Source: an uncultured virus (IMG/VR IMGVR_UViG_3300009702_000024) | Taxonomy: Duplodnaviria > Heunggongvirae > Uroviricota > Caudoviricetes | Reading direction: 5' to 3' (one strand) | Virus record (IMG/VR): IMGVR_UViG_3300009702_000024 | DNA: 20,000 nt | Shown: positions 1 through 18,176 of the stretch, in pieces | Numbering within the stretch: position 1 is the stretch's first letter | Layout of the letters: each line of letters opens with the position of its first letter | Translations under genes and position numbers: made by a program | Notes under the pieces: generated by a model | Database searches by the model: none | The model's input: the letters and a program-made list of their open reading frames with translations, nothing else | Told to the model about the DNA's origin: nothing

Positions 1-1231
1 CTGAAGGTCTAGCTACATAGAAGTTACTCGTCTTATCTCTTAGTAATTGACATCCGGGCGGTCTTCGTGGATTTGTTTGTGTTGGTACTACAAAGACATT
101 CATATTTCTTTCTAACTCGTAATAATTGTTTGGTGCGTTGTCCTCTTCGTCATTCATAGCAAAACGTATGAAGAGAGCTATCTCTTCAAGTGTGAAATTT
201 TTATGAAGAAGATAACGAGATATGAGTACTCTATTCCAGTGCTGAGGTGTGTTCTTGACAAACGCTCGTTTAATGCACGGTGGAGTTTCTTCAACATCTC
301 CAGTCAATTTCTCTTTGATAGAAAGGATAATATTTTTCTGATGAACATCCAGTGTTTCAAATGGCAGTGGTACATTGAGTGTTACATATTCACGCACATA
401 CTTACTCTTATCTATCGTCTGAATTGACTGTGTGTCTACAAGCACATCGCCAGTTTTCAGCACATCGATAGTTTCATACGGTATATTGAAATCAATAATC
501 TTACAATACTGTAATTCAGTGTTTCTTATACTTGCTTTTATGTCAATGACAGTGGGATCTTTTCTTGTGAACAGAATTGGAGCACATATGTAAATATTTG
601 GCATGATTTTTGTGTAGGGAGAATAAGGCATTCTAAACACATGAACTCCTTTTTTCATGATCATGTGCCGATCTATAACAACTTCAAGCTTGTGCTCATC
701 AACAGTTATCCAGCGAGTAATTCCTCTTTTGTAGTCGTGCCAATCTTCACAGTATGTGTCTACTTTATGGTTCTTTTGGCATTTATTCACTATCTTCCAC
801 ACTTTTTTGTACAAATTAGCTTTGGATATATTTGGAAATATTTTACGTACCATATAGCCACCTTTTCCACTCAAATAACAGAAGAAATTAGGATCTTTGT
901 CAAGAATACTTTGCATTGCTGTCAATGCAGTTTTCAATTGTAAGTGTCGTAATTTAGAATTTGTTAGTACCATACGAGTATTGTTAGAAGGGTAAATATC
1001 CATATCAAACACGAACATAGTATGATCCTTTCCCTCCACAGATCGAAATGCGGAAGTATTTAGAGTGAAATTAGCACTGTCAGTTTTCCACGATTTATCT
1101 GTGAATTTCTCGTGACCTTTCCCATCGGGAATAGCATTCACATAATTTACAGCGTTTCTAAGTAACTGTTGAGTACCATCCAATTTCATAGCTTGTTTGA
1201 CAATGTGATAAAGTTTTGATCCTTCGACCAT
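1..1231 (-). CDS. Fused primase: archaeo-eukaryotic primase (PriS-like) catalytic domain plus PriL-like C-terminal domain; 3' end runs off the window (>=410 aa)
   Basis: Not in the ORF track. Manual translation from ATG at 1231 is open to the window edge: MVEGSKLYHIVKQ...TMFVFDMDIYP (motif I hhhDhD, ~998-1016)...FCYLSGKGGYMV (motif II-like)...EVVIDRH...HVFRMPYSPY (motif III and RxPxS)...TPPCIKRAF..QHWNRVLISRYLLHKNFTLEEIALF...RRPPGCQLLR (PriL-CTD pattern). A TATA-like element lies ~25 nt upstream. Confidence 0.85.
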   Translation of the reverse strand, partial: MVEGSKLYHIVKQAMKLDGTQQLLRNAVNYVNAIPDGKGHEKFTDKSWKTDSANFTLNTSAFRSVEGKDHTMFVFDMDIYPSNNTRMVLTNSKLRHLQLKTALTAMQSILDKDPNFFCYLSGKGGYMVRKIFPNISKANLYKKVWKIVNKCQKNHKVDTYCEDWHDYKRGITRWITVDEHKLEVVIDRHMIMKKGVHVFRMPYSPYTKIMPNIYICAPILFTRKDPTVIDIKASIRNTELQYCKIIDFNIPYETIDVLKTGDVLVDTQSIQTIDKSKYVREYVTLNVPLPFETLDVHQKNIILSIKEKLTGDVEETPPCIKRAFVKNTPQHWNRVLISRYLLHKNFTLEEIALFIRFAMNDEEDNAPNNYYELERNMNVFVVPTQTNPRRPPGCQLLRDKTSNFYVARPS

Positions 1232-1377: not shown

Positions 1378-1443
1378 TAGTAACCTTTATAATGGGTGAA
1401 ATCTAAAGAAATATGCTACCGGAATGGTAGATCAGAAAGGTGA
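1378..1443 (+). promoter_or_regulatory. TATA box (TTTATAA, 1386-1392) and archaeal-type SD (AAGGTGA, 1437-1443)
   Basis: Seen directly. The SD lies 4 nt before ATG 1448, which supports MSEEQ as the start. Confidence 0.6.
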
Positions 1444-1447
1444 CAAC

Positions 1448-2599
1448 ATGTCAGAAGAACAAGATCAAGTTAAAAAAGAGATCCCAAAAGAAGAGACTCT
1501 TTTTCTGAAAAATACATCATTTGATGAATTGAAATCTACAACAATCAATTTATTTAATGATGCCGAAACTGCACTTCTCACGAGAGAAGCTAACAGAGAT
1601 ACATTGGACAAGATAATTAAAAATTATCTATCAAATCAACTGTTCCATAATTATAGTATTGATAAAGTTATTCCAGCCATCAGAGATCAGTTCAAAAGAG
1701 AAGCACTGAGCGGATCAATTTCTACACTTCTATATGTCGGAGGTGCTGATTTTCTTGAGTCGTCAAGACAAAATCCAAGAAGACAGTCAGCACTTTTTAT
1801 TCATGTGAAGGATGGACAGCTCGATCCAAATGGAGAACCCGGTTCTGGTGGTTTCTTCGACACATATGTTTGGGGATCCACACCACGAGAGAATGTGTCA
1901 GACAGATTTGAAGCTGGATCATCTTACGATTTGAAAATTACTGAAACTCTATCTCAAAGACAAGATGGGACACCAGTAACCTATTACAACATTAAAGATT
2001 ATCGTTACATTAAAGACGAAAGTGAAAATTTGGTAAAAATATTGGAAGAGACACCAACCCTAAATAAATTGCTCAGAGAAAATCTTGGTGAAACTGGAAC
2101 TTTCACACAAGAGTACATGGAAATTCTTAGGAGTAGTGCATCTTTTTCATTCGTTGCTCTTAAAATGCGTATTACTACAGTGTACTCTCACCGTCAAGGA
2201 GAACGAGTACAAGAAAATGGAAAGTGGGTGAATGTTTTCAAAGATGACTCTCCATATCGATCAGTCGTTCAAAAGGATGATAGACTGGATAAGCGGTATC
2301 CATCGTTTAGTCTCAGTGGATATAGCAATATTGGTCAAGATAGATCAATTAGAGTTTTAGCTGGATTTTATCCACAGACATTAGGTCAGTTCTTTATCCA
2401 TTCTGACACCGTTCAAGCTCTTATAGATGATCCATCATTCTTGAAAGAGACTCCAGAACACCAGTCACAGTTCATGTCTGTGACTTTGAGTGGTAAAGAA
2501 TTCCTTATTGTTGGAAAACTAAAAGGTAATTTGAATGCTTCAGCTGACGAGAAGACATTGAATGTTGGACTCACAGCTATAGCTTTGATAGAGCTTTAA
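1448..2599 (+). CDS. Hypothetical protein, possibly an OB-fold ssDNA-binding/recombination protein
   Basis: Long ORF (track start 1424; the SD favours 1448). Beta-rich aromatic segments (FFDTYVWG...FEAGSSYDLKI...TYYNIKDY; FSLSG...IRVLAGFY...GKEFLIVGKL) resemble OB folds. It sits between the primase and the RecA-like ATPase. The CDS is secure; the product is tentative. Confidence 0.6.
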   Translation: MSEEQDQVKKEIPKEETLFLKNTSFDELKSTTINLFNDAETALLTREANRDTLDKIIKNYLSNQLFHNYSIDKVIPAIRDQFKREALSGSISTLLYVGGADFLESSRQNPRRQSALFIHVKDGQLDPNGEPGSGGFFDTYVWGSTPRENVSDRFEAGSSYDLKITETLSQRQDGTPVTYYNIKDYRYIKDESENLVKILEETPTLNKLLRENLGETGTFTQEYMEILRSSASFSFVALKMRITTVYSHRQGERVQENGKWVNVFKDDSPYRSVVQKDDRLDKRYPSFSLSGYSNIGQDRSIRVLAGFYPQTLGQFFIHSDTVQALIDDPSFLKETPEHQSQFMSVTLSGKEFLIVGKLKGNLNASADEKTLNVGLTAIALIEL

Positions 2600-2616
2600 A
2601 GGAGAGTTGAAATGGA

Positions 2617-2850
2617 ATGGATTTCGATATGAAGACTATATCAAAACAAAAAAAGTTGATTGATGATATGCTTGTAAATATTCATTCCAATTCATCCTTC
2701 TCGCATTTAATGTACACGAAGAACCCATATCGAAGTATTCTCGATCACGTGTATTCTCTTGGTGAAGATTTTTCTGATGTCCATGAAGCTATGAGTAAAC
2801 ATCGCATGTATACAGAGATTAAATTAAAACGAGTGAGAGCACAGAGATGA
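2617..2850 (+). CDS. Hypothetical protein (77 aa)
   Basis: ORF fills the gap in the operon; AAGGAG upstream at ~2599-2604. Confidence 0.65.
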   Translation: MDFDMKTISKQKKLIDDMLVNIHSNSSFSHLMYTKNPYRSILDHVYSLGEDFSDVHEAMSKHRMYTEIKLKRVRAQR

Positions 2851-2854
2851 GATA

Positions 2855-3670
2855 ATGCTAGGAAGCAACAAAAATTCTACCAAATCTATGGATCTGTTGG
2901 CAATGACAAGTCATGTTTCAGATAATGCATTGCATTCATTCATATTCATTTATGGCAAAGAAGGTAGTTCTACAACGACATTAGCTTACTCTATTTTGGG
3001 AGCAATCCCGAAAGACAAAAAGCTTTATGTCATTCTCACCGAACCACCTCATAACTCAACAGCACCTCTTTTAAAGCATTTTCCAGAGTATGCTGTTGAT
3101 GAACGAGTAATCTTCCCATCTAAAGACAATATTGTCCATCCTATTTCAAATAGACAACAGTTCCAATATTTTGTTTCACAAATTCTTTTAAAAGACGATG
3201 TGGGAGCAATACTGTTCGATGCTATTGACAGTTTACGGTTCATTCTCTACAATTATTATCTCAGCTCAAATACCAGTAATACACTCAAAGCTTGGGGGAA
3301 AGCTGATGATGATATAAATAGCAGTCTCATTCGTTTCGTGTCACTTCCTATTCCAAAAATTGTCATTATGAAAGAGAAAGCTGAGACAATTGTTGGAAAG
3401 GACAGTATGGGTAAAATGAAATTTGAGAAAACTGGAAATATAGTTCCAGCATTCAATTCTGAAAAAGTTCAACGGTGGGCTTCTATGAGATTTCATACAT
3501 TGAAAATCGGTGAGTATGAAGTTGTAAAAACGAAAGGTAATGTTAAAGTTGGTGAGAAATTTCGTTTTGGATTTGATATTCAGAAACGACAGACCGGTGT
3601 ATGGTTACCAGAAATGCTCAAGAAAATGCAAGTTTTATCTCCAAAAAGGATGACATTGGACAGTAAATAA
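2855..3670 (+). CDS. RecA-superfamily (Sak4/AAA_24/RadB-like) P-loop protein with degenerate Walker A
   Basis: IFIYGKEGSSTTTLAYS (Walker A position, GKT replaced by STT), LYVILTE (RecA-type Glu), ILFDAIDSL (Walker B), KIVIMKEK strand. Confidence 0.7.
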   Translation: MLGSNKNSTKSMDLLAMTSHVSDNALHSFIFIYGKEGSSTTTLAYSILGAIPKDKKLYVILTEPPHNSTAPLLKHFPEYAVDERVIFPSKDNIVHPISNRQQFQYFVSQILLKDDVGAILFDAIDSLRFILYNYYLSSNTSNTLKAWGKADDDINSSLIRFVSLPIPKIVIMKEKAETIVGKDSMGKMKFEKTGNIVPAFNSEKVQRWASMRFHTLKIGEYEVVKTKGNVKVGEKFRFGFDIQKRQTGVWLPEMLKKMQVLSPKRMTLDSK

Positions 3671-3674
3671 ATTA

Positions 3675-4298
3675 TTACTGTGTAGTATCATATTCAATTG
3701 GTTTATATTTTAATTTTTTAAACAATAACTTTTTTCGAGTTTTACTTCCATTAAATCTGATAAATCTGTGTTTGCGTGGTCGTTCAATTTGGTATAATCT
3801 ACTTCCATATTCTTCTTTTAATTCTTTTAATGTCTTACCTCTGAAAATATTTCGAGAGTGATTTAGACTGTCTTTAAGTCGCCACTCTTTATGCTTGTCA
3901 CTCAATCCGGTGTAAATGAATGACAGTGCTTTGTAAACAGTTCCTTTATGTCCTATTGATGTATCAGCATAGGAGACGATAATATCCTTGTCAGTTATCT
4001 GTTTTAGTAACTTGAATGTCCTTGAGACGAACCAGCTTTCTGTATTTTTTGGTGTAATATCTTCGATGAATAATCTAGTGAGTTCAATCACTCTTGAACT
4101 TTCTTCTTTTCCAGCTATCCCTTTACATAAAGCTGGAGATGCTGGTTTTCCATAAATACACACACCTATCAGTTCACTCTCATCAAAAAGACCGAACGAG
4201 AATACAGTAGAACATTTTCTTTTTAGATAATGTCGTTCTTTTTGCCAATTGTTTGCAATAGTATTTTTTATCTGTTTTACAATGTAACTATCTTTCAC
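3675..4298 (-). CDS. Mom-family GNAT DNA (adenine) modification enzyme
   Basis: HYL...FGLF...LIGVCIYGKPA...IELTRL...PKNTESWFVSR...IVSYADTSIGHKGTVYKALSFIYTG...KHRF matches the phage Mu Mom family pattern. Likely start is GTG at 4298, with a TATA-like TTTTATTA at ~4319-4327; the track start is 4346. Confidence 0.85.
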   Translation of the reverse strand: MKDSYIVKQIKNTIANNWQKERHYLKRKCSTVFSFGLFDESELIGVCIYGKPASPALCKGIAGKEESSRVIELTRLFIEDITPKNTESWFVSRTFKLLKQITDKDIIVSYADTSIGHKGTVYKALSFIYTGLSDKHKEWRLKDSLNHSRNIFRGKTLKELKEEYGSRLYQIERPRKHRFIRFNGSKTRKKLLFKKLKYKPIEYDTTQ

Positions 4299-4398
4299 AA
4301 TACAAAATAGATAACAGCTAATAAAAATATTATTACTTGTAAGCATACGAATGTATTAGCAAGGACAAGTTTTAATTATCTAAAAAGTATTGTACTGT

Positions 4399-4728
4399 AT
4401 GGACAATTCAGATGATAAAAATGTGGAATATTTAGATATGGTGGATCGTAAAAATCTTCTCAATCGACTGATTAATGGTGTATCTCCAGAACTATTAGAA
4501 GAAGAGTACTGTGTGAATATACCAAATGTCGTCACAGCTTACTATTCTTGTCCACATTGTCAAAAAGATTTTCCTATCAAGCTTATTACGCAAGACATAT
4601 CACGTAATACACGTTTTGTCAGATGCCCTAATTGTCGCACTAAATCATTTATTACCACATTACAGAAATCCACCAATGTCGTCACACGGAAACGAGCGAC
4701 AATCGATGATTTTTTCACAAACGAATGA
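4399..4728 (+). CDS. Zinc-ribbon protein
   Basis: CPHC...CPNC pairs; ATG at 4399 lies ~20 nt after TTTTAATTAT. Confidence 0.75.
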   Translation: MDNSDDKNVEYLDMVDRKNLLNRLINGVSPELLEEEYCVNIPNVVTAYYSCPHCQKDFPIKLITQDISRNTRFVRCPNCRTKSFITTLQKSTNVVTRKRATIDDFFTNE

Positions 4729-4787
4729 TACAAAAATAGTATTTGACAATAAAAACCTTAAAGTAGTGCATAATACTATATTACCAT

Positions 4788-5204
4788 ATGAATAATGAAA
4801 ATATTGAAATTGAAAAAAGAGAAGAAATACTAGACTCTGAAATTATACTTAGCATTCTCAAGAATATTTTTGATTTGCCAGAGAGAGGTGAGTCAAAAGC
4901 AGATCATGATAAATATCTTCTTGATATGTTAAAATTAGGAGGTCTCACTGAAAGACAAGCTATGTCTATAATTCTCTATGCTGATGGAATGTCAGTAAGT
5001 GACATTTCAATGGAGATCTCTAACTCACGATACACACAGAATATTTCGGCAGCATTGTCACAAGCAGTAGGTAAAATTCTCAAAGCAGTAACTATCTTTG
5101 AAGTTGTCCGATACGACAAGAATTTTATCGCTAAAGTATTCGAGCGAGGAGCTGCAATTCAATCGACATATAAAGCACTATTGAAACCAGAAAATAAAAA
5201 ATAG
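4788..5204 (+). CDS. Helix-turn-helix DNA-binding protein (sigma70 region 4/LuxR-like HTH)
   Basis: LTERQAMSIILYADGMSVSDISMEI...NISAALSQAVGKI pattern. Confidence 0.7.
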   Translation: MNNENIEIEKREEILDSEIILSILKNIFDLPERGESKADHDKYLLDMLKLGGLTERQAMSIILYADGMSVSDISMEISNSRYTQNISAALSQAVGKILKAVTIFEVVRYDKNFIAKVFERGAAIQSTYKALLKPENKK

Positions 5205-5207
5205 TGG

Positions 5208-5438
5208 ATGATAATTATGAAACGAAAATATATTGACCCAAGTGATTTTAATATTTCTGAAATAATTAATACTGGTATATTAGCAAGAGGGAGAATGGAT
5301 CTCCCATCCTCGTTGCATATGCTAGTTGGCAAATTTTCCCAAATTATAAATGATATTCTCAACGATATATACAATGAACTTGAGAACCCTTCAATAGATA
5401 CAGAAGAAGAAGACGAGGACAGCGATCTTTTTAGATAG
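5208..5438 (+). CDS. Hypothetical protein with acidic C-terminus
   Basis: ORF starts 3 nt after the HTH gene and ends DTEEEDEDSDLFR. Confidence 0.65.
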   Translation: MIIMKRKYIDPSDFNISEIINTGILARGRMDLPSSLHMLVGKFSQIINDILNDIYNELENPSIDTEEEDEDSDLFR

Positions 5439-6295: not shown

Positions 6296-6475
6296 TTCAT
6301 TATTGTAGAATGATAATAAATGTGATGATTGTGACACATTAGCTGAGGATGGTGAATATCCACCCAAAGATATTCTTTCGATTATTCTTGATAAATATAA
6401 TACTAAACCAAAAATATTCGAATAAATTTATGCAAGGACAATAACCTTTTAATATGTAACAACATAATTGATATT

Positions 6476-7858: not shown

Positions 7859-8042
7859 AATAGAACAAGATGGAGAATACTCTACTCTAACAGCACCGAG
7901 AAATTTCTTCCCGCTCGTCTGTATGCTCCTTGAAAATTTGACTGACGAGGATCTAGACAAATGGATAAATGACCATTATCCCATCACAAAGGATAGTATC
8001 CATGAAATTAGAAATGAAATAAGGAGGAATTTCTTTGATTAA
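7851..8042 (+). CDS. Hypothetical protein (63 aa)
   Basis: SD GAGGT upstream; overlaps neighbours in operon fashion. Confidence 0.6.
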   Translation: MIRIEQDGEYSTLTAPRNFFPLVCMLLENLTDEDLDKWINDHYPITKDSIHEIRNEIRRNFFD

Positions 8043-8526
8043 TAATCGAGATATACCATATATTAGACGGTTAGAGGATATTCGACAATTCTCTGAAAAA
8101 TATCTAAACATAAAACTTAATACGTTTCAACTGGAATTCTTGAGAGAAGACTATAAGATGAGACTGATGGGAAAGACTACCGCTGCAATCGTAGAGACAA
8201 TGTGGAAAGCTTATAATATGCCTCCTAATTCTCATCTGTACTTTGTGACTCACACTCGTGATATGAGTCAGAGAGCACTCAAATCAACAATCGAAATATT
8301 GACTAAAGCAAATCAGAAATATTTGAAATACAATTATGTGAATAATATTTTAGTGCTTGAAAATACAGTGACCATTCATTTCATATGGATAGACGACATA
8401 AAGGATGTCGTGTCAGATATGAAAGACAGTATTATTAAAAACGTTACAAGCATTAAATTCTATGAACGTAGAGGATTTAGTAGAGCAAGAGAAGATTATA
8501 CATTTGATCTTGATCAAATGTTCTAG
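8035..8526 (+). CDS. Terminase-large-subunit ATPase-like protein (N-terminal part, Walker A retained)
   Basis: FSEKYLNIKLNTFQLEFL...RLMGKTT resembles the adenine-binding Q motif and the RxxGKT Walker A of large terminases; no nuclease domain; TTG start with AGGAGG SD. Confidence 0.6.
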   Translation: MINNRDIPYIRRLEDIRQFSEKYLNIKLNTFQLEFLREDYKMRLMGKTTAAIVETMWKAYNMPPNSHLYFVTHTRDMSQRALKSTIEILTKANQKYLKYNYVNNILVLENTVTIHFIWIDDIKDVVSDMKDSIIKNVTSIKFYERRGFSRAREDYTFDLDQMF

Positions 8527-8540
8527 GAGAAATATAAAAC

Positions 8541-8918
8541 ATGAAAGATACGACAGAAAAAGAATTGGAAGAAATTACAACTTTGCTGGTGAAAGCTATA
8601 TGGGAGTCTTTTAGGATGCCTCCTCATTCTCACATTGCTTATTTGATAAATAATCCAAATACGAAAACTGTAATAATTAAAATGACAAAAATCTTGGATA
8701 TTGCAGACGTAGGTTACTCGGAATACGATTTGAAAGAAAGTACTTTGACACTCAAAAATACTGTGACCATCCACCTTATGCCAATGTCCGGTTTAATTTC
8801 AGAAATGTCTGCTACAAAGAAAACAGAGATAAGAGAAAAGAAAACTATCGAACCACATGTAATATGTATAGATGAACAAGCTTATTCTAGTAAACAAATA
8901 GGGAGGTGGAATATATGA
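8541..8918 (+). CDS. Paralog of the preceding gene; Walker B-like motif present, Walker A absent
   Basis: IWESFRMPPHSHIAYL vs MWKAYNMPPNSHLYFV; LTLKNTVTIHLM vs LVLENTVTIHFI; C-terminal HVICIDEQAY. Confidence 0.65.
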   Translation: MKDTTEKELEEITTLLVKAIWESFRMPPHSHIAYLINNPNTKTVIIKMTKILDIADVGYSEYDLKESTLTLKNTVTIHLMPMSGLISEMSATKKTEIREKKTIEPHVICIDEQAYSSKQIGRWNI

Positions 8919-9121
8919 TTGAAGACAAAACTCTAATAGAAGAAAAACGAAAATTCGTGGAGTATTTGAAAAAGCACGTAAAGGATGAGGATCATATTAC
9001 TTCTAAAGAAATATCAGAAATAATAGAAAATTATCAGAACACAAGAGTGAGTGAATATCGTATTGTAGGATTAGACAGAATATACAAAATAATTGGAGAT
9101 GTGAAATATGATGAAAAATGA
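8906..9121 (+). CDS. Hypothetical protein
   Basis: SD GGAGGTG at ~8902-8908 favours the ATG at ~8915; operonic overlaps. Confidence 0.6.
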   Translation: MEYMIEDKTLIEEKRKFVEYLKKHVKDEDHITSKEISEIIENYQNTRVSEYRIVGLDRIYKIIGDVKYDEK

Positions 9122-10487
9122 GAAAAAGATGACGGTAAAAGAGTATCTTCAATCGCTGGACTGGACACTGAAATACGCAGACATGAAAGAGAATACTCAC
9201 AATATTCACACATACCCAGCTCGTATGCCACCATTACTTGTAAGAAGGATCATAAAAAATTTGTCTATGAAAGACGACACTGTTCTAGATCCATTCATGG
9301 GATCGGGAACTGTTACACTAGAAGCATTCATCAATAAGAGGAGAAGTATTGGTATAGATGTCAATCCTCTTGCTGTGAAAATAGCTCGAATAAAATCAAC
9401 AATTGTTGATCCACAGAAGATCCAAGAGGAATTTATGAGAGTGTTGAAAAACGCTAATTCTGATCTCTCAAAGAAAAAAGATGCTTACAGAATTAAATTC
9501 CTTGCATATAAAAAGTCTTTATCGTGGAAGACAATAAAGTGGTTAAATTACTGGTTTCTTGATTATGTGCAACTTCAACTATTTGGTCTGAAAGAGGTTA
9601 TCAAACGAATAAGAAATGAAGAAATTAGAGAATTCTTTCAAATTATCTTATCTGATACTTCTAGATGGGTATCAAACAATCGAAACAGCTCATACAAAAA
9701 TTATAAAATGAGCGAAGAGCAAATGAAAAAGTTTGAACCTAAAGTATTTCAAACTTTTAATCTTCTCTACAGTCAAGCCATTATCAGTATGCACAAACTT
9801 ATAGATAATGTGATAGGAGAATACTCACCAGTCTTCTCACATAAATTCTTCCTCAAATTAGTTAAGGAGAAAACGAGTGGATACACTCCAAAAATTCTCA
9901 ATGAAAATTTTCTTGACACAGATATAAAACCTAAATCAGTTGATCTTATCCTCACAAGTCCCCCATATGGTGATAATGGGACAACAGTGGCTTACGGTCA
10001 ATTCTCAAAATTCTCTCTTTTCTGGTTAGGTTACGATCCTCTTACTGGAGCAAAGATTGACAGAGAAGGATTAGGAGGAAGAAAACTGTATGACACGGAG
10101 ATGATATATTCTCCGCATTTCTATATAATCAAGAAAAAGATTAAGGAGAACGAGAAAGAGATGAAAAATAATACTCGTCACATTGATTTTCATCTCTTCT
10201 TTCAAGAGTATCAGAAATCTATTGAGAAAATGGCGATGTGTATTAAGAACAATAAATATATATGTCTGGTTGTTGGAAATCGCTCTGTTAGAGGTGTGAG
10301 AGTTCCTATGGATCTTATAAGTGTAGAAATAGCAAGGCAGTATGGTCTTGAGCATTATTTAACTCTAAATCGAGATATTTCAAGTAAACGACATCCTATA
10401 TCACAAAAGATGAAAATAAATGACAAATCTACAAAAATTAACAATATAAATAGAGAAACCATTGTCATCTTGAAGAAAACTGGTTGA
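9108..10487 (+). CDS. DNA N4-cytosine methyltransferase, alpha class, M.MvaI-like
   Basis: Motif X HNIHTYPARMPP; motif I VLDPFMGSGT precedes motif IV LILTSPPYGDNGTTVAYGQFS; VVGNRSV. The TSPPYGD..TTVAYGQFS string is what I recall as typical of the MvaI-like family. Confidence 0.9.
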   Translation: MMKNEKKMTVKEYLQSLDWTLKYADMKENTHNIHTYPARMPPLLVRRIIKNLSMKDDTVLDPFMGSGTVTLEAFINKRRSIGIDVNPLAVKIARIKSTIVDPQKIQEEFMRVLKNANSDLSKKKDAYRIKFLAYKKSLSWKTIKWLNYWFLDYVQLQLFGLKEVIKRIRNEEIREFFQIILSDTSRWVSNNRNSSYKNYKMSEEQMKKFEPKVFQTFNLLYSQAIISMHKLIDNVIGEYSPVFSHKFFLKLVKEKTSGYTPKILNENFLDTDIKPKSVDLILTSPPYGDNGTTVAYGQFSKFSLFWLGYDPLTGAKIDREGLGGRKLYDTEMIYSPHFYIIKKKIKENEKEMKNNTRHIDFHLFFQEYQKSIEKMAMCIKNNKYICLVVGNRSVRGVRVPMDLISVEIARQYGLEHYLTLNRDISSKRHPISQKMKINDKSTKINNINRETIVILKKTG

Positions 10488-11309: not shown

Positions 11310-12959
11310 ATGCAAGATAGTAAAATTTATGACGATTTTGTACTAATATATGGAGACGCATTCAAATATGTTAGAGGGATACCCAGAAAAAGTATAAAAT
11401 TGATTATGACATCGCCACCTTACAACATTGGAAAAGAGTATGAGAAGAAGAAGAAATTCGATGACTACTTATACGATATGCAGAAATTGATTGAGAATTT
11501 AAAGAACGTTCTTAGAGATGATGGTATTGTAGTATGGCAAGTAGGCAATTACATTGAGAGACGAAGTAATGTGACAGAAATATTTCCTCTAGATTATTAC
11601 TTCACAGATATATTCATCTCTGCTGGTTTCAGATTTCTGGAGCGTGTCGTGTGGAGGTTTGGACACGGATTAAATGCCACGAAGAAATTTTCGGGAAGAT
11701 ATGAAACTTTGCTGGTCTTCTGTAAAGCAGACTACCTTCCTAAGCATCAAATTAGAAGATACAATGACATACCCAATGAGCTGAAAAGTAAAATTGTCAT
11801 GAATTCATGGATTGAAAAAATTTGGAACATTCCAAACGTGAAATCCAATCATGTTGAGAAATATAAACATCCGTGCCAATTTCCAATAGAGTTGGTTGAA
11901 CGGGTAGTGTACGCTTACACCGAAAAGAACGATGTCGTTCTGGATCCGTTTGCTGGAGTCTCATCAACACTGATAGCTACCATAAAATGTGGTCGAAAAG
12001 CTATTGGTATCGAAATAGACATGAAATATATAAAAATTAGTAAAGAGAGGCATATCAAATTTCTCAACAATAAATTGAAGATACGAGAAATGCGAGATCA
12101 AAAAGAAATTCCAATTACAAAAGGGAAGACCAGCATCATTCCCAAAGAATTTGATCTCTATTGGAGAGAGAAAAAGAGGGAAGAGAAAGAGTTTATTCTC
12201 AAAAATCTTGCAAAATTTGACAAAAATAGTGGGGATATTCCACTCCATATAATTCGGCAAAAATTATTAAAAACTCTCAAATCAAAAACTTATAGTCTTA
12301 TTTTCGTTGACCTCCTTGAGTGTTTTAATGAAACACGGTGGTATGATATTATGAATACTATAGTGGAAAATTCACTGATGAAAAACAATGGTAATTTTCT
12401 CATACTCGTAGATGGAAGACGGTTCATTGAAAGAGAAACTTATAAAAAATTCAAGGAATTTACATCCACGAAATTCAAACTTAGAGGAAGAGTGGTAATT
12501 GATGGAGGGAATTACACTGACACTTCATACTTAATGCTTCTGTGGTTCACAGCATCAGAGACATATCTATGGGATCTAGATAATCTAAGAATTCCTCAGA
12601 AATATCCCGGAAAGACTCATTATAGTGGGAAGAAGAAAGGGACAATTTCTGGCAATAAACGTGGAAAGAACCCATCTAATTATTGGGGAACTGAGACACT
12701 TAATTTCCACAAGAAATTATATCACACGAACTCCACTGACACGGTATATGAGATGGTTGTCAAAGGCTTCTCTTCTACTGGAGACTCTATTCTACTAATG
12801 AACTATGGCAGAGATGGTCATAAGATGGTAAAATATGCTCTTGCACGAGGACGCAAGGTCGTTGAAGTCATTCCAGAGTATCAAGAATACATGGTAAATG
12901 CAAGGAAAAGAACGAATTTTGACGACATAAAAGAAGCATTTTCCAAATATACACTATAA
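11310..12959 (+). CDS. Beta-class DNA amino-methyltransferase (BglII/BstYI-like, probably m4C) fused to a second, catalytically degenerate MTase domain
   Basis: N-half: IMTSPPYNIGKEYE, WQVGNY, WRFGHGL..KFSGRYETL, IPNVKSNHVEK..HPCQFP, VLDPFAGVSST. C-half repeats the fold: LIFVDLLE (for DPPY/SPPY), LMKNNGNF, LLWFT..YLWDLDNLRIPQKYPGK...GKNPSNYW, STGDSILLMNYG, RGRKVV. Confidence 0.88.
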   Translation: MQDSKIYDDFVLIYGDAFKYVRGIPRKSIKLIMTSPPYNIGKEYEKKKKFDDYLYDMQKLIENLKNVLRDDGIVVWQVGNYIERRSNVTEIFPLDYYFTDIFISAGFRFLERVVWRFGHGLNATKKFSGRYETLLVFCKADYLPKHQIRRYNDIPNELKSKIVMNSWIEKIWNIPNVKSNHVEKYKHPCQFPIELVERVVYAYTEKNDVVLDPFAGVSSTLIATIKCGRKAIGIEIDMKYIKISKERHIKFLNNKLKIREMRDQKEIPITKGKTSIIPKEFDLYWREKKREEKEFILKNLAKFDKNSGDIPLHIIRQKLLKTLKSKTYSLIFVDLLECFNETRWYDIMNTIVENSLMKNNGNFLILVDGRRFIERETYKKFKEFTSTKFKLRGRVVIDGGNYTDTSYLMLLWFTASETYLWDLDNLRIPQKYPGKTHYSGKKKGTISGNKRGKNPSNYWGTETLNFHKKLYHTNSTDTVYEMVVKGFSSTGDSILLMNYGRDGHKMVKYALARGRKVVEVIPEYQEYMVNARKRTNFDDIKEAFSKYTL

Positions 12960-12998: not shown

Positions 12999-13292
12999 AT
13001 GAAATTACGAGAACGTAATACTATCTACCCGAAATTACATGAGAGATTTGTTAAACTCACAATAGAGGGAAATGACGAGATGAAAATAGACATGTGCAAG
13101 AAACTTATGAAGCATAATGAAGTGCTCTATGCCGAATTGCATCCACTTGAACACACTGGAATACGCATTGTCGTATCAAGAGCACTAAATTTTAGAGACG
13201 TGCTTAATATTATCAAGAGAGAAATTGACGATGAGATAAAATTTGTAGAATTGCGAGAAGTTTCTAGTTTCTATCCCGCACTCGAAAGATGA
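12999..13292 (+). CDS. Hypothetical protein
   Basis: ORF with TTTTTAATA ~21-29 nt upstream. Confidence 0.65.
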   Translation: MKLRERNTIYPKLHERFVKLTIEGNDEMKIDMCKKLMKHNEVLYAELHPLEHTGIRIVVSRALNFRDVLNIIKREIDDEIKFVELREVSSFYPALER

Positions 13293-13561
13293 GAGGTGAG
13301 TATATGAACATCTATGAAAGCACAAACGGAGACATTATTGAGCTGAAAACTGTCGCACATATATCAAAGAAAAGCAAGTGGGTGAGATATACGAAAGAAA
13401 GAGTGAAATTGCATCTCAAACTCAACTATCCTTCTTCCCACATTATATCTTATAGCACAACTACCACAAATAACCCGCAAGAAATCATCATCCGTCTTCT
13501 TGCTGAACTGTTTCCAGAGAAGCAGACCACACTCTCCTCCTTCCTAAATTCTGCACAGTAG
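13289..13561 (+). CDS. Hypothetical protein
   Basis: ORF; GAGGTGA SD suggests a start at the second Met (~13304). Confidence 0.6.
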   Translation: MRGEYMNIYESTNGDIIELKTVAHISKKSKWVRYTKERVKLHLKLNYPSSHIISYSTTTTNNPQEIIIRLLAELFPEKQTTLSSFLNSAQ

Positions 13562-13611
13562 TACTTGCAGTTATAGAAACGTTTATATTACCACAATGTA
13601 GTAAGTGTAGT

Positions 13612-14262
13612 ATGAAGAAAGTGAAGATATTTCCAGCACTTACTTTCTGCTCATTTGGGGAATGCAGAAATCGTATAACACCACGAACAGAGAAAGAGCT
13701 GAGAAAGATGAAGGGAAGAGACGTGTTGAAAGACACCTTCTGTGACGAATGCGTTGAAAGTAAATTCACACAGAAAGGATCACCCAAAATACTGTCCCAC
13801 TGGCGGAGAAAGATAGAGAAGAAAGCGGAGACAGTGACCCGTATCATCTACGGTGACGAGATTGCGAAAGAACGAACTCAAGCACTCAAGACTGTGAAGT
13901 TCATTCCAACTCTGAGAAAGTACAAAAATCTTCGCACTGGAATAGTTGGTCAGTATTTTGGTAACAACAGAATAGAATTGAATGTACGTAAATGCAGTAC
14001 CGAAACCCAATTCATTTCAGTCTATGTCCACGAGATCTCCCACCATTTTGTCTTCTGGAAGAAGGAGAATAAGTCACACGGGGAAGAATTTGTTAGGTTC
14101 ATTCGAGCACTCATCCACGAGCTAGAATTTGAGATCACACACTGCCACAGAAAGAAGAACGGTGACATTCGCTGGGATGCCATCATGGACATCAAGCTAC
14201 CTCCTCGTAAGCACAGCAATTTTGCATCAATGGAGAAAATGGAGAAAATGGAGAAAGTCTAA
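13612..14262 (+). CDS. SprT-like zinc metallopeptidase with N-terminal Cys4 Zn-finger
   Basis: GQYF...IELN...VYVHEISHH...SHGEEF (HExxH plus HGxxF); CSFGEC...CDEC; promoter GAAACGTTTATATTA at 13576-13590. Confidence 0.8.
   Translation: MKKVKIFPALTFCSFGECRNRITPRTEKELRKMKGRDVLKDTFCDECVESKFTQKGSPKILSHWRRKIEKKAETVTRIIYGDEIAKERTQALKTVKFIPTLRKYKNLRTGIVGQYFGNNRIELNVRKCSTETQFISVYVHEISHHFVFWKKENKSHGEEFVRFIRALIHELEFEITHCHRKKNGDIRWDAIMDIKLPPRKHSNFASMEKMEKMEKV
14230..14256 (+). repeat. Perfect 9-bp tandem repeat x3 (ATGGAGAAA) encoding MEK-MEK-MEK
   Basis: Seen directly at the 3' end of the SprT-like gene. Confidence 0.9.
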
Positions 14263-14310
14263 TTGTAGATAACAAAGCTTATTAATACATTATATACATA
14301 ATGATATAGT

Positions 14311-15186
14311 ATGGTAATATACAACACAGAACCGCCGATACCGCCTACCAACGTGAATGGTAGAATAAACTGGACACGAACCAAGCTTGAAAACATAGCA
14401 AATTACATCGATGCTATAGAAGAAAGTTACAAAATGGGGAAGTACGGGACAGTGATAATTGAAAATCTGGAAGTTAACAATCCGCTGAATGACGATTTCG
14501 GATTTACTGTAAATCCGTTCAAAGAATGCGTTTATCTCTTCAGTACGAAGGGTACACTCTTTGATCAGATGGGACAAAAAAAACTGAATTACGGGGATTT
14601 CAATAAACTTCTAAGTAGTGTGCTGTACAAAATAGTTATAGACAACTTAAATGGTTTAACTGTCCGTTACGATTTAGCTGAGGATATGTACACATGGGAC
14701 ATCAACATGCCAACTCTTGACGGTTTTACGAAAAAACGTTTCAAGACGAGTGGACACCTCACTCGTGTGAGGATGCTGAACATAGCTTTTGGTATAACGA
14801 GCATCCACATGAGACAGAAGCAATTCATGTCAGTTCCAACTTTGGACACAATCTCACAATTGTTCCAGAGTGAGAAAATTGGTGGTCGGCACTCTGGAAG
14901 AGATGCAAAAGAAGAGCAACTTCTTCTCTATATTCTCTACACTTACGGTAAGAGTCTGGCATACAGTTACGATCTTGGACTCGACACCGCTTTTCTGGAT
15001 CTCAAACGTCACGATCTTCCACCAGAATACGTGAGAATTATATCTCGTGGAATAAGTGCAGTAAGAAAGTGCTCTTTCGTCATGGTGTACGAGGACAGCA
15101 GTTTCCACACAATAAACGTACTAGATCTTGAAAAATTAGGAGGTAACAATATTACAGTTGTTGACTGGTTTGATGGAGTGATCTAA
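14311..15186 (+). CDS. Hypothetical protein (291 aa), paralog of the next gene
   Basis: Long ORF with promoter AAAGCTTATTAA upstream; collinear similarity to 15187-16062. Confidence 0.8.
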   Translation: MVIYNTEPPIPPTNVNGRINWTRTKLENIANYIDAIEESYKMGKYGTVIIENLEVNNPLNDDFGFTVNPFKECVYLFSTKGTLFDQMGQKKLNYGDFNKLLSSVLYKIVIDNLNGLTVRYDLAEDMYTWDINMPTLDGFTKKRFKTSGHLTRVRMLNIAFGITSIHMRQKQFMSVPTLDTISQLFQSEKIGGRHSGRDAKEEQLLLYILYTYGKSLAYSYDLGLDTAFLDLKRHDLPPEYVRIISRGISAVRKCSFVMVYEDSSFHTINVLDLEKLGGNNITVVDWFDGVI

Positions 15187-16062
15187 ATGGAGTATATAGA
15201 CGATGCAAGTATCACAGAAACACTTTCCAAGATACGGAATTACCAGAAGGAGATCACGCAGACTGGAAGGAACGAGAAGTACTTCATACAAAGTTTGAAC
15301 AATCTCTCTGATGGGAGTGATAAGATAAGCCATATCAAGTTCATTACAATGTCTTCACTTTATATGGTAAAAATATTCTTGGTGTCCAATAACAACACAC
15401 TATACTTGATTGGAAATATAAGTCTCTCAAGCTTCATGAATTTTCTCGACACTACAATGAAAAAAGAGTCAAGTCCAGCTGTTCTGGTAGGAATATTCCA
15501 CTACGATGAGATACACGAGAAGCGAATTGTCTACAACAGTAAGAAAGATGTATTCTACGCATCGGCAAACTACACTGAGAGTTCTGGTATTCGGATGAAT
15601 TCTCCCCTTGAATTCGACAGCTTCGAGCTGAGAAAAACTTTGCTTCAATTGGCTATTGGCATGACCTATTCTATCCCTCGTCATCCACATCTTCCAGCAT
15701 CACTTTTCCCCACCGATGTCCGTCTTTGGAAGACCGACAATGAAACAGACAAGGAGCTTATTCTCGCTCTTCTCTACCACAATGGTAGGAGGATGCGGGA
15801 CATTGGCAAAACTTTCGATCCAGTGTACACCAAGCTCACCTTAGAGCAAATTCGAGCTGTCGGTATGGGTATGTCCGACATTGACGATACTCTACTGGTC
15901 AGTACCGAAGATGGTAGTTACATTATGCACCCATACGATCCGCTCATTGTCAATTGGAGACACATGCGTACTATGAAATGGCAGAACCTCACTCTTCCTT
16001 TCAGTGGTGAACTGAAGGATGATTTAGAAGATTACTTGAAGGACGATTTGGAGGATGATTAG
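15187..16062 (+). CDS. Hypothetical protein (291 aa), paralog of the previous gene
   Basis: Abuts the previous stop; SD GGAGTGA; acidic DDLEDYLKDDLEDD tail. Confidence 0.8.
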   Translation: MEYIDDASITETLSKIRNYQKEITQTGRNEKYFIQSLNNLSDGSDKISHIKFITMSSLYMVKIFLVSNNNTLYLIGNISLSSFMNFLDTTMKKESSPAVLVGIFHYDEIHEKRIVYNSKKDVFYASANYTESSGIRMNSPLEFDSFELRKTLLQLAIGMTYSIPRHPHLPASLFPTDVRLWKTDNETDKELILALLYHNGRRMRDIGKTFDPVYTKLTLEQIRAVGMGMSDIDDTLLVSTEDGSYIMHPYDPLIVNWRHMRTMKWQNLTLPFSGELKDDLEDYLKDDLEDD

Positions 16063-16453
16063 AATAAGCACAGCACCTTCTGGCATTTACTTACATCTCA
16101 CGAAGAGGGACTTTGTGGTTGACAATCCCGACATACTAGATGTCGTCACTGAGTGGCACAAGAAGCTGGTTCTGAAAGCTGACATGTCATGCATGTCTGA
16201 GCTTCTTCTCTGGAGGTTCTACACTGTTGGAGTTAGCGTTGAGAGTTTCGAGCCTATCAGCAGCATCCGAGACTTTGCGACAAAATTTGCACTTCCATTG
16301 ATACATCGTTTCGGTATTCCCTACGATCTGAGTTTTCTGGTGAACCCACATGTCGCCGATTTCGACATGGAGATGACCAAGATCATTGTGAAACTCATGA
16401 ACCACGAGGTTCTTGAGATGTCCGAGATCAACCGCATTATCAATGGGAGCTGA
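16055..16453 (+). CDS. Hypothetical protein (132 aa)
   Basis: Overlaps the upstream stop; last gene of the run. Confidence 0.7.
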   Translation: MIRISTAPSGIYLHLTKRDFVVDNPDILDVVTEWHKKLVLKADMSCMSELLLWRFYTVGVSVESFEPISSIRDFATKFALPLIHRFGIPYDLSFLVNPHVADFDMEMTKIIVKLMNHEVLEMSEINRIINGS

Positions 16454-16647
16454 GCATGTCTGCTGAGCAATCTGCTTGGCACACTCTGAATTGCTGAGGC
16501 AAGAGAGATTTCCACATCAAACGATTTAGGACAGTGATGAAGTCCGTGCTTCGCACGGAGTGGAGTTGGTCAGAGTTGGTGAAGGGATGATCACGGATAT
16601 TTAAAGGAGTGATCTGCGGGTGTAGCGAAAACTTTTTGGTTACGCTC

Positions 16648-16677
16648 ATTCTGTATTAGTAATAACTAATACAGAAT
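16648..16677. repeat. Perfect inverted repeat, 13-bp arms, 4-nt loop
   Basis: ATTCTGTATTAGT-AATA-ACTAATACAGAAT. Confidence 0.9.
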
Positions 16678-16887
16678 TAACAATAGAAGAAAAATACAAG
16701 TAGTTGCGTACCCAAAAAAAAGCTCTAGTGGTCATCTGATTGAAGTAGATTGACTGTGGAAGGGTTTAAGGTAGGTAAAATATGTGTTTTCCTACGATTT
16801 TCAAAAAGTGGAACGGAAATGCACTGTAATAAAATGTCTGGAGTTCCGGTACTATTTTGATACACATATCATTATAGAACACCTTCT

Positions 16888-16902
16888 TATATAAACTTTG
16901 CG
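16888..16902 (-). promoter_or_regulatory. BRE-TATA promoter (CGCAAAG-TTTATATA) with no substantial downstream ORF
   Basis: Close to archaeal consensus; followed by a 33-codon ORF (16867-16766) and a T8 tract (16721-16714). Confidence 0.55.
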
Positions 16903-17095
16903 TTTTTTTTTCGTCTTGGTACGAATTACCTTCACACCGCTTCACGGACGATATAATACGAGTTTCAAACCCGCTATGTCGTTTTACTCTATTGTACTAA
17001 AAAAATCACTTCAGCAAAACGGTAGCAGAATTGTGGTAAAAGTGGACGAATACCACCGAAAGATTTATTAATTTACTGCTTCATTACAATGTAGC

Positions 17096-17440
17096 ATGGT
17101 AGAACACAACACTAATACTGCGAAGAAAAGATATGACAGCAGACGGATAAATATCGAGTTGAATGCTGAGTTGAAGAATGTCAGAGAGTTGCAGAGAAAG
17201 ATCGAAATGCCACGTATAGGGGGATCTGCAACGAATTATTTCATGTAAGAGATTGTGAATGAAAGAGAGGAGGAGAGCAAAACTGTATCTCTGTTCAATC
17301 AACTGGGGATGTCTGGCGATGATGAAAAACTGCTTGTAAGCAGAGTTGACGGGTCTATCCGCCCTTACACTGAGATAGTTGCTATGTGGGACGACATGTT
17401 CACATCTACTTGGATGAAGCTTGAGTTGCCTACGACATAA
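17096..17440 (+). pseudogene. ~114-codon reading frame interrupted by one in-frame TAA (17246-17248)
   Basis: MVEHNTNTAKKRYDSRRINIELNAELKNVRELQRKIEMPRIGGSATNYFM*EIVNEREEESKTVSLF...LELPTT*; BRE-TATA AAAGATTTATTAA at ~17058-17071. Confidence 0.55.
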
Positions 17441-17800
17441 TTCTGCATTCTAAAATTTAAAATTCCGAGCTGCTAAGTTCCTCTAAATCTGGGAGTGTGT
17501 GGCTTTTTTGTTATCGTTTGAACAAGTTCCACGACAACAAGAAAGGTGTGTTCTGTGCGTTTGAATGGATCGGCATGAGTATTTGGTCATCTCGAAATAA
17601 TCGTGTAAAATTTCGGTGTCTGTGTGGCTGTGTGAGCATTCATGTACTACAGCAAGACAGCAGAACCGGAGAAAAAAACAGTGTAGTGAGAAAACAATGC
17701 ACACACCTACAGAACAAGGGCAGATAATACCAAAGTGAACGACATAAAACACCACTCCACAGACTTCAGAAGTGCATCTAACAACGAAGAGAGAGGACGA

Positions 17801-17870
17801 TATGACACGATATAGCACGGTATAATACGACATAACACGGTATAATACGGTATAATACGGTATAATACGG
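17801..17870 (+). repeat. Tandem array of seven 10-bp units, consensus TATAAYACGR
   Basis: tatgacacga, tatagcacgg, tataatacga, cataacacgg, tataatacgg x3; followed by ACGG-TACT-CCGT and a C7 run (17879-17885). Confidence 0.95.
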
Positions 17871-17959
17871 TACTCCGTCCCCCCCATTTATACCCCAGAT
17901 ATGTCATAGAATGGCATGTGCGGAAAATGAATATATGTAGTGTTCTACTATAGGGTAGT

Positions 17960-17974
17960 AAAGTATATATAATC
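17960..17974 (+). promoter_or_regulatory. BRE-TATA promoter AAAGTATATATAATC (copy 1)
   Basis: Identical 15-mer at 18200-18214; precedes ATG 17994. Confidence 0.75.
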
Positions 17975-17993
17975 CCTAATTCCTATACTATCT

Positions 17994-18176
17994 ATGAGAT
18001 CAAAAATAGGGAGTGAACACATAAGAATTATTTTGTGCGCTCACGGAAGAAAAAACTATTCTGAAAATCGTATGTCACAACTGGAAATTATGTCCAGTGA
18101 ATATTACTTTCAATGCGTTGACTGTGGTTTTCAAACGAAAGATGACGACACTATGATAGATCACTGCTTAAATTAA
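17994..18176 (+). CDS. Small C2H2-like zinc-finger protein
   Basis: YFQCVDCGFQTKDDDTMIDHC; start uncertain. Confidence 0.55.
   Translation: MRSKIGSEHIRIILCAHGRKNYSENRMSQLEIMSSEYYFQCVDCGFQTKDDDTMIDHCLN

Follow-up and report, generated by a model that had tools for sequence, protein, structure and literature searches.

The mom locus and its surroundings

The window, that is the whole stretch of 20,000 nucleotides that was analysed, belongs to an element present in runs labelled as subsurface, biofilm and sediment metagenomes. The genes and features that matter here are the following:

2..1231, minus strand: 5' part of a 1114-aa fusion of primase (AEP plus PriL-like) and superfamily-2 helicase (full protein P0150)
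1424..2599, plus strand: conserved 391-aa gene of the replication block, with 25-27% identical orthologues in three relatives
2855..3670, plus strand: Sak4-like ATPase (phrog_124, E 4e-7), left flank of the likely insertion site
3664..3679, no strand: left copy of a direct repeat (14/16 identical) that flanks mom
3675..4298, minus strand: mom-family gene, 207 aa, GTG start, predicted GNAT fold with the Mom helical insertion
4299..4346, minus strand: in-frame stretch of 16 aa upstream of mom, beginning at an ATG; translation improbable (homologue starts, box position)
4320..4327, minus strand: archaeal TATA-like box TTTTTATT, beginning 29 nt ahead of the mom GTG
4322..4337, no strand: right copy of the direct repeat, 16 nt, overlapping the mom TATA-like box
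4399..4728, plus strand: zinc-ribbon protein on the right flank; in relatives the next gene after the ATPase is its orthologue
9108..10487, plus strand: N4/N6 DNA methyltransferase (PF01555; PADLOC MTase_II, E 2e-85)
11310..12959, plus strand: second N4/N6 DNA methyltransferase (PF01555, E 3e-46; PADLOC MTase_II)

The minus-strand frame of mom is open from 4346 (ATG, 223 aa) or from 4298 (GTG, 207 aa) and its stop lies at 3675-3677; residue numbers of the mom protein follow the 223-aa frame. The GTG is the better start because homologues begin near it and the box TTTTTATT lies at -29 of it, and an existing gene call (P0122) has the same GTG start and 207 aa. The ATG at 4346 was judged less likely than the GTG, with no TTTWWW box at the corresponding place. 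A preliminary description of this locus had listed three Mom-like motifs, and all of them are present (ELTRL at residues 88-92, PKNTES at 99-104 and VSYADTSIGHKGTVYKALSFIYTG at 124-147), the third pattern having been written one wildcard short. It was also right in describing a gene that runs opposite to its neighbours (1424-3670 and 4399-5438, both on the plus strand), that has a TATA-like element of its own, and whose stop, beginning at 3675, is separated by 4 nt from the ATPase stop ending at 3670.

The sequence TTTWWW occurs at -31 to -27 in seven of the 14 other window genes that come first in their run, compared with 0.8 in shuffles (p 2e-4), for a pattern and a distance window that were picked after the sequences had been viewed. 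The zinc-ribbon gene has its own TTTTAA box at -29. For mom considered alone, such a box would occur by chance with a probability of 0.18, and its case therefore rests on the window-wide TATA pattern, which suggests that the mom transcript could be leaderless and start from its own TATA box. With regard to the direct repeat, a 14-of-16 match around mom was reached by 2 of 400 shuffles for a repeat length that was chosen afterwards, and the repeat might conceivably be a faint insertion scar. The surroundings of mom show short two-copy repeats and no transposon ends.

The product of the 391-aa gene is possibly an OB-fold single-strand DNA-binding protein, a lead that comes from weak SSB/RecJ-OB structure matches below the tool's bar. 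The ATPase has orthologues with 42-44% identity in three relatives (L048, L049 and L051), and a scan of viral contigs with it gave no relative among 20 candidate stretches. No nuclease partner was seen for the methyltransferase at 9108..10487. The product of 11310-12959 (549 aa) matches PF01555 in two stretches, the second half being divergent, and this methyltransferase is possibly fused or duplicated. Upstream of both, the adjacent small ORFs 8035-8526 and 8541-8918 are paralogous, with 28% identity (E 3e-12). With its GKT motif and weak ResIII match, the first resembles a lone helicase or a terminase ATPase piece, its identity as a terminase being unsupported on comparison with the terminase of a distant relative (G002, see below). 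Paralogy of two 291-aa ORFs was likewise unsupported. C-terminal motifs resembling a PCNA box are found in a 90-aa ORF at 13289-13561 (QTTLSSFL) and, in a looser form (ATIDDFF), in the zinc-ribbon protein. GC content is 37-46% in 13500-18000 and ~33% elsewhere in the window; 16450-18000 is gene-poor and holds, at 17797-17872, a 10-nt tandem array whose region is possibly an origin. The X2-run relative differs from the window by small cassettes (at 6318, 7831, 8913-9107 and 15311): in three of them it has different sequence, of 294, 181 and 78 letters, and it lacks 193 nt that in the window hold a 71-aa ORF. No Rfam match or tRNA was found in the 20-kb window.

The Mom protein and its His-bearing subfamily

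Judged by its sequence and by its predicted structure, mom encodes an intact Mom-family GNAT enzyme. Family membership, as claimed in the preliminary description, is borne out by three collections: the protein scores 134 bits with the Pfam Mom model PF25680 (cut-off 27.1, E 7e-39) over model positions 2-200 of 202, matches phrog_1384 with E 2e-52, and finds Mu Mom (8BV8) as the sole match of a PDB sequence search (E 6.5e-13). Of the two families that had been proposed for an HMM check, Mom is thus confirmed and XF1762 is not, since the cut-off of NF045478 was not reached (25.9-26.2 vs 50 bits, residues 25-160) and membership of XF1762 is ruled out. An AlphaFold model built from 64 aligned homologues (pLDDT 92.6) places insertion helices at 148-151 and 157-167, and its top fold match is again 8BV8 (Foldseek E 2e-13; Z 20.4, rmsd 3.6 over 180 residues), the next GNAT following at Z 12.8.

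Of 623 candidates in the homologue search, 440 proteins were homologues, with PF25680 found in 120/120 of the matches listed, and a scan of viral contigs with Mom confirmed 574 of 600 stretches, from which ~2000 are estimated. Between the mom frame of the window and that of the X2-run relative there are 26 substitutions (16 synonymous and 10 non-synonymous) and no gaps, and the resulting pN/pS of 0.16 (p 0.004) indicates that mom is under purifying selection. The protein is a single domain of 207 aa encoded between the ATPase and zinc-ribbon genes, with the closest HNH gene 1.6 kb away, and is not fused or adjacent to a restriction-fold nuclease of the type described in PMC7824862. Other arrangements were seen among the Mom-bearing loci: a Mom next to a gene that matches an ABC ATPase and, weakly, an acetyltransferase (L005 4399-6221), a Mom fused behind an endonuclease domain (L016 9299-10546) and two tandem Mom-like matches (L030 9278-10369).

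According to PMC13219725, the putative active site of Mu Mom consists of H58, Y59, R111, S124, D149, R151 and Y159, R111 and S124 being named essential and the R151A mutant having undetectable activity in vivo. Six of these seven residues are kept in the mom protein, where H58, Y59, R111, S124, D149 and Y159 of Mu correspond to H39, Y40, R91, S104, D128 and Y138, and the equivalents of R111, S124 and Y159 are invariant in 120/120 homologues listed. The seventh, R151, is replaced by S130, which counts against an enzyme identical to that of Mu because R151A leaves no detectable activity there. By a Mu-type Mom enzyme we mean, among other things, one that forms 6-NcmdA at SAS sites in double-stranded DNA in dependence on Gly-tRNA(Gly). 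The loss of R151 is a trait of the subfamily and not a sign of decay, as an Arg occurs in that column in 5/120 of the homologues listed and a His is found three residues after it (Mu position 154) in 119/120. In addition, W48 of Mu, a dimer contact, is not kept (T29 in that column), and W181 of Mu pairs with W155 when aligned by HMMER and not by MAFFT.

The protein could be an active Mom-family modifier whose His-bearing subfamily uses a different aminoacyl-tRNA or acyl donor, sequence context or base, so that the product is not 6-NcmdA. We regard this as a serious, if less probable, reading: R151 is gone and a near-invariant His has been gained in the loop after D149, the protein is just 23% identical to Mu Mom, and donor and substrate are not predictable from a GNAT structure alone (PMC13219725). 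It is opposed by the conservation of the six remaining predicted active-site residues and of the helical insertion, and by randomly chosen metagenomic homologues, which may or may not be of this subfamily, that were reported in the same study to be active in the Mom assay.

The element and the origin of its mom gene

The replication protein of the element, P0150, has 11 relatives among longer proteins, with matches to PriL-like PF04104 and DEAD helicase found in these relatives, and its nearest Atlas cluster is an AEP-TOTE primase that is 69% archaeal. A scan with the alignment of the P0150 relatives gave 16 metagenome loci and two viral loci; the protein had no match among 50,697 phage records or 72,556 plasmid records, and its profile gave just coiled-coil chance matches against the PDB. 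The closest relatives were read for ~10 kb on either side of the replication gene. One of them, L051, encodes a family B polymerase, and among solved structures this matches 1S5J best (E 3e-55, next 7e-25), which is PolB1 of Sulfolobus. PolB1 is distributed in TACK and Asgard archaea. A search with the L051 polymerase found P0195 and P0196. P0195 also matches 1S5J best (E 5e-54, next 5e-24), as well as PRK05761 'DNA polymerase I' models, all under their cut-offs. It represents a cluster with members, 98% identical to it, on contigs of 72,211 and 65,521 nt, which are the sizes of the contigs that bear this Mom. A PolB1-like polymerase is therefore apparently encoded on the same contig as mom. 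The C-terminal tails of these polymerases are PCNA-box-like. The L051 polymerase itself (14516-18139, 1207 aa) has an insertion of ~340 aa inside the YGD-TDS motif that ends in HN and is in this respect intein-like; its relatives in L057 and L059 have ~870 aa.

The preliminary description had spoken of an archaeal-type element, and the TATA boxes, the polymerase and the AEP-TOTE primase cluster agree with it: as read from its sequence, the element is archaeal in type, with TATA promoters, a primase-helicase fusion and a PolB1-like polymerase. We consider it very improbable that the element infects bacteria and carries an ordinary bacteriophage mom gene. This would be in line with the named close homologues of the protein, which are all bacterial or from bacteriophages (10/10 genome loci and the top phage records), and is at odds with the TATA boxes at -29 in seven of 14 genes, with Shine-Dalgarno-like words in just 2 of the 14 window genes tested, with sigma-70 sites around mom that are no commoner than chance (6 vs 7.3), with the PriL-like domain, and with the PolB1-like polymerase and its PCNA-box-like tail. 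Our reading is thus an archaeal host, and we infer it to be TACK or Asgard, to which the polymerase type alone points.

No HK97 capsid, portal or terminase genes were found in the 20-kb window. In G002, a distant relative of 85.6 kb with a replication protein 29% identical, there are genes for terminase, portal, major head, tail sheath and baseplate proteins, and the element is probably a tailed virus and not a plasmid. G002 also contains response-regulator-like and kinase-like genes, glycosyltransferases and a tRNA-Trp (L067 6893-7711; L069 13892-14923; L068 17293-19749; L069 18035-18111). Elements of roughly 45-87 kb, represented by L048, L050, L051, L057, L059, G002 and the window, form one family of archaeal type, whose common genes are the primase-PriL-SF2 helicase fusion, the PolB1-like polymerase and the Sak4-like ATPase. 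As the fusion is unmatched in the phage and plasmid collections, this may be an undescribed family of archaeal viruses.

In the case of the relatives L048, L049 and L051, the gene order is replication protein, 391-aa gene, small gene, ATPase and zinc ribbon, and the end of the ATPase gene touches or overlaps the beginning of the zinc-ribbon gene, leaving no space for mom. The inserted cassette that the preliminary description had proposed is supported by this empty site, seen in 3/3 relatives that span it: because the flanking ATPase and zinc-ribbon genes are directly joined in all of them, mom was likely inserted. As L048 and L049 are almost the same, the empty site represents about two independent lineages. 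It is possible that mom was instead lost in the empty-site relatives. The Mom profile gave 0/26 over the loci of the replication family (335,591 bases, partly overlapping), and Pfam Mom had no match in G002 or G003 (0/2), both of them incomplete records, in a search whose controls were silent, though it did detect the gene in G001. The mom gene has been kept for some time, since it is found at the same place in the X2-run relative and also, as judged by equal-sized contigs, in a lineage with 82% identity in the replication protein and 89% in Mom.

The donor was likely the bacteriophage gene pool. The best named matches of the mom protein are bacteriophages (37-45% identity), and its sisters in the tree, P0003 and P0072, are both without known host. 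A genome scan gave 10 loci, all titled bacterial, from 131 pattern matches, the patterns being query-specific and no gauge of archaeal absence. None of 124 Mom-bearing loci has this replication protein or polymerase; a DnaB-like helicase is present in 10 of them. L001 has DnaB and an endolysin, and DnaB was found in 0/5 of the records that bear the nearest viral Moms.

Predicted function and comparison with known Mom systems

Mu Mom transfers glycine from Gly-tRNA(Gly), being selective for tRNA(Gly), and the carbamoylmethyl base arises by rearrangement of the resulting product (PMC13219725); acetyl-CoA and iron had been put forward earlier for this chemistry (PMC7261163). The chemistry of Mu Mom as given in the preliminary description consequently needs to be updated to a Gly-tRNA(Gly) donor followed by rearrangement. 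The reading that we favour, with moderate confidence, is that the element, probably a tailed virus of archaea, carries a bacteriophage-derived Mom that would transfer an amino acid, likeliest glycine, from charged tRNA to adenine N6 and so counter restriction. By analogy with Mu Mom, the DNA that the enzyme binds would be double-stranded and already replicated, and glycine would be taken from the Gly-tRNA(Gly) of the host and placed on adenine N6, where the adduct would rearrange to 6-aminocarboxymethyl-dA (6-NcmdA). The modified DNA could then escape cutting by many host restriction enzymes, with mom acting beside the two methyltransferases in protecting the element, and the presence of two N4/N6 methyltransferases on the same element fits such a role in DNA protection.

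It seems improbable to us that the protein serves another role, such as acylating host DNA, RNA or protein, or that it works poorly with archaeal tRNA. GNAT folds do accept very diverse substrates, Mu Mom is selective for its tRNA, and archaeal tRNA has no mention in the text of PMC13219725, from which these points are taken; but the protein resembles Mom over its full length much more than it does other GNATs, as the Z scores given above illustrate, its gene is under purifying selection, it accompanies two DNA methyltransferases, and Mom-family genes are also kept by haloarchaeal viruses.

The protein is comparable to Mom of phage Mu (8BV8) in its GNAT fold, helical insertion and six residue equivalents, and in being encoded by a stand-alone gene of a virus-like element. 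It differs from Mu Mom in the low identity, in the loss of R151 and W48 and in the His at Mu position 154, and its gene has no adjoining com gene and has an upstream region of archaeal TATA type, its function being predicted from sequence. A closer resemblance is seen to the 'Mom-like DNA modification protein' of PHROG 1384, which belongs to the same subfamily (37-56% identity) and has the SYAD/E...GHxG..Y motif; its carriers are Microbacterium phage WaterT, the Listeria A511 group and many uncultured phages. Where the context is readable, PHROG 1384 genes are located among bacteriophage genes, whereas the mom of the window lies in an archaeal-type replication block. Mom-like genes have also been described as accessory cargo of a marine element (bioRxiv 2025.08.03.668216).

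Like the element of the window, the archaeal tailed viruses HGTV-1 and HRTV-4 carry Mom-family genes. RefSeq names HGTV-1 gp215 (YP_008059390.1) a 'Mom-like DNA modification protein', among the matches listed (60 of 347), and this protein scores 110 bits with PF25680, above the cut-off, and has the same GHxG motif; HRTV-4 gp19 also passes, with 32.6 bits. HHTV-1 gp44, which was matched by fold, fails Pfam Mom and was not retained. HGTV-1 has been cultured, and its gp215 gene (L075 2480-3154) encodes a Mom-family protein of full length. The mom protein is 30% identical to gp215, which has a Thr at Mu S124 and whose host is haloarchaeal. In the tree, gp215 groups with Bacillota sequences. A single clade uniting gp215 with the three-member group of the window protein, a group named after a quick tree of 75 rows with long branches had been viewed, was rejected with p-AU 1e-50 on 31 of these rows (without HHTV-1 gp44, HRTV-4 gp19 and 42 others). 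Rejection of a common clade makes this an acquisition separate from that of gp215.

Asgard-linked tailed viruses such as Ratatoskr are also similar in having an archaeo-eukaryotic primase, PolB and DNA methyltransferases (bioRxiv 10.1101/2021.07.29.454249), and G002 shares with viruses of the Ratatoskr type an HK97-type head and glycosyltransferases, a resemblance by description and not by sequence. 'Mom' is not mentioned in the text examined of that study or of PMC13532342, and it is absent from the 12 of 23 supplements searched of PMC8651126. The preliminary description had considered hypermodified adenine to be poorly documented in archaeal viruses. This is accurate for the modification, since we found no report of Mom-type modification in an archaeal virus, in a literature of which most subscription papers lie outside our coverage; it does not apply to the gene, as HGTV-1 gp215 and HRTV-4 gp19 are on record. 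The claim to novelty is weakened because gp215 is already annotated as Mom-like and gp19 passes Pfam Mom. Archaeal viruses were thus already known to carry Mom-family genes, and the window element would be another such case.

A bolder proposal, which we consider a long shot, is that an Asgard tailed virus has captured a bacteriophage Mom and operates it with an archaeal promoter and charged tRNA, making a hypermodified adenine that would be a new base, given that R151, essential in Mu, is replaced throughout the His-bearing subfamily; thousands of uncharacterised viral genes would share it. Returning to the favoured reading of a Mom that protects the DNA of an archaeal virus, an active enzyme would represent tRNA-dependent DNA hypermodification in an archaeal cell, for which we found no earlier report, and would imply that methylation alone would not stop the defences of the host. 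The importance of this case is moderate, as the Mom family is very large and the cultured HGTV-1 is an easier system for the archaeal question; in fact, HGTV-1 is the easiest place to seek the modified base in archaea. The cross-domain gain of the gene is traceable here, with the empty site still seen in relatives, and mom could be a concrete test enzyme for a large His-bearing subfamily whose chemistry may differ from that of Mu. As judged from the sequences, the value of this element would thus lie in a visible cross-domain gain together with a subfamily of uncharacterised chemistry.
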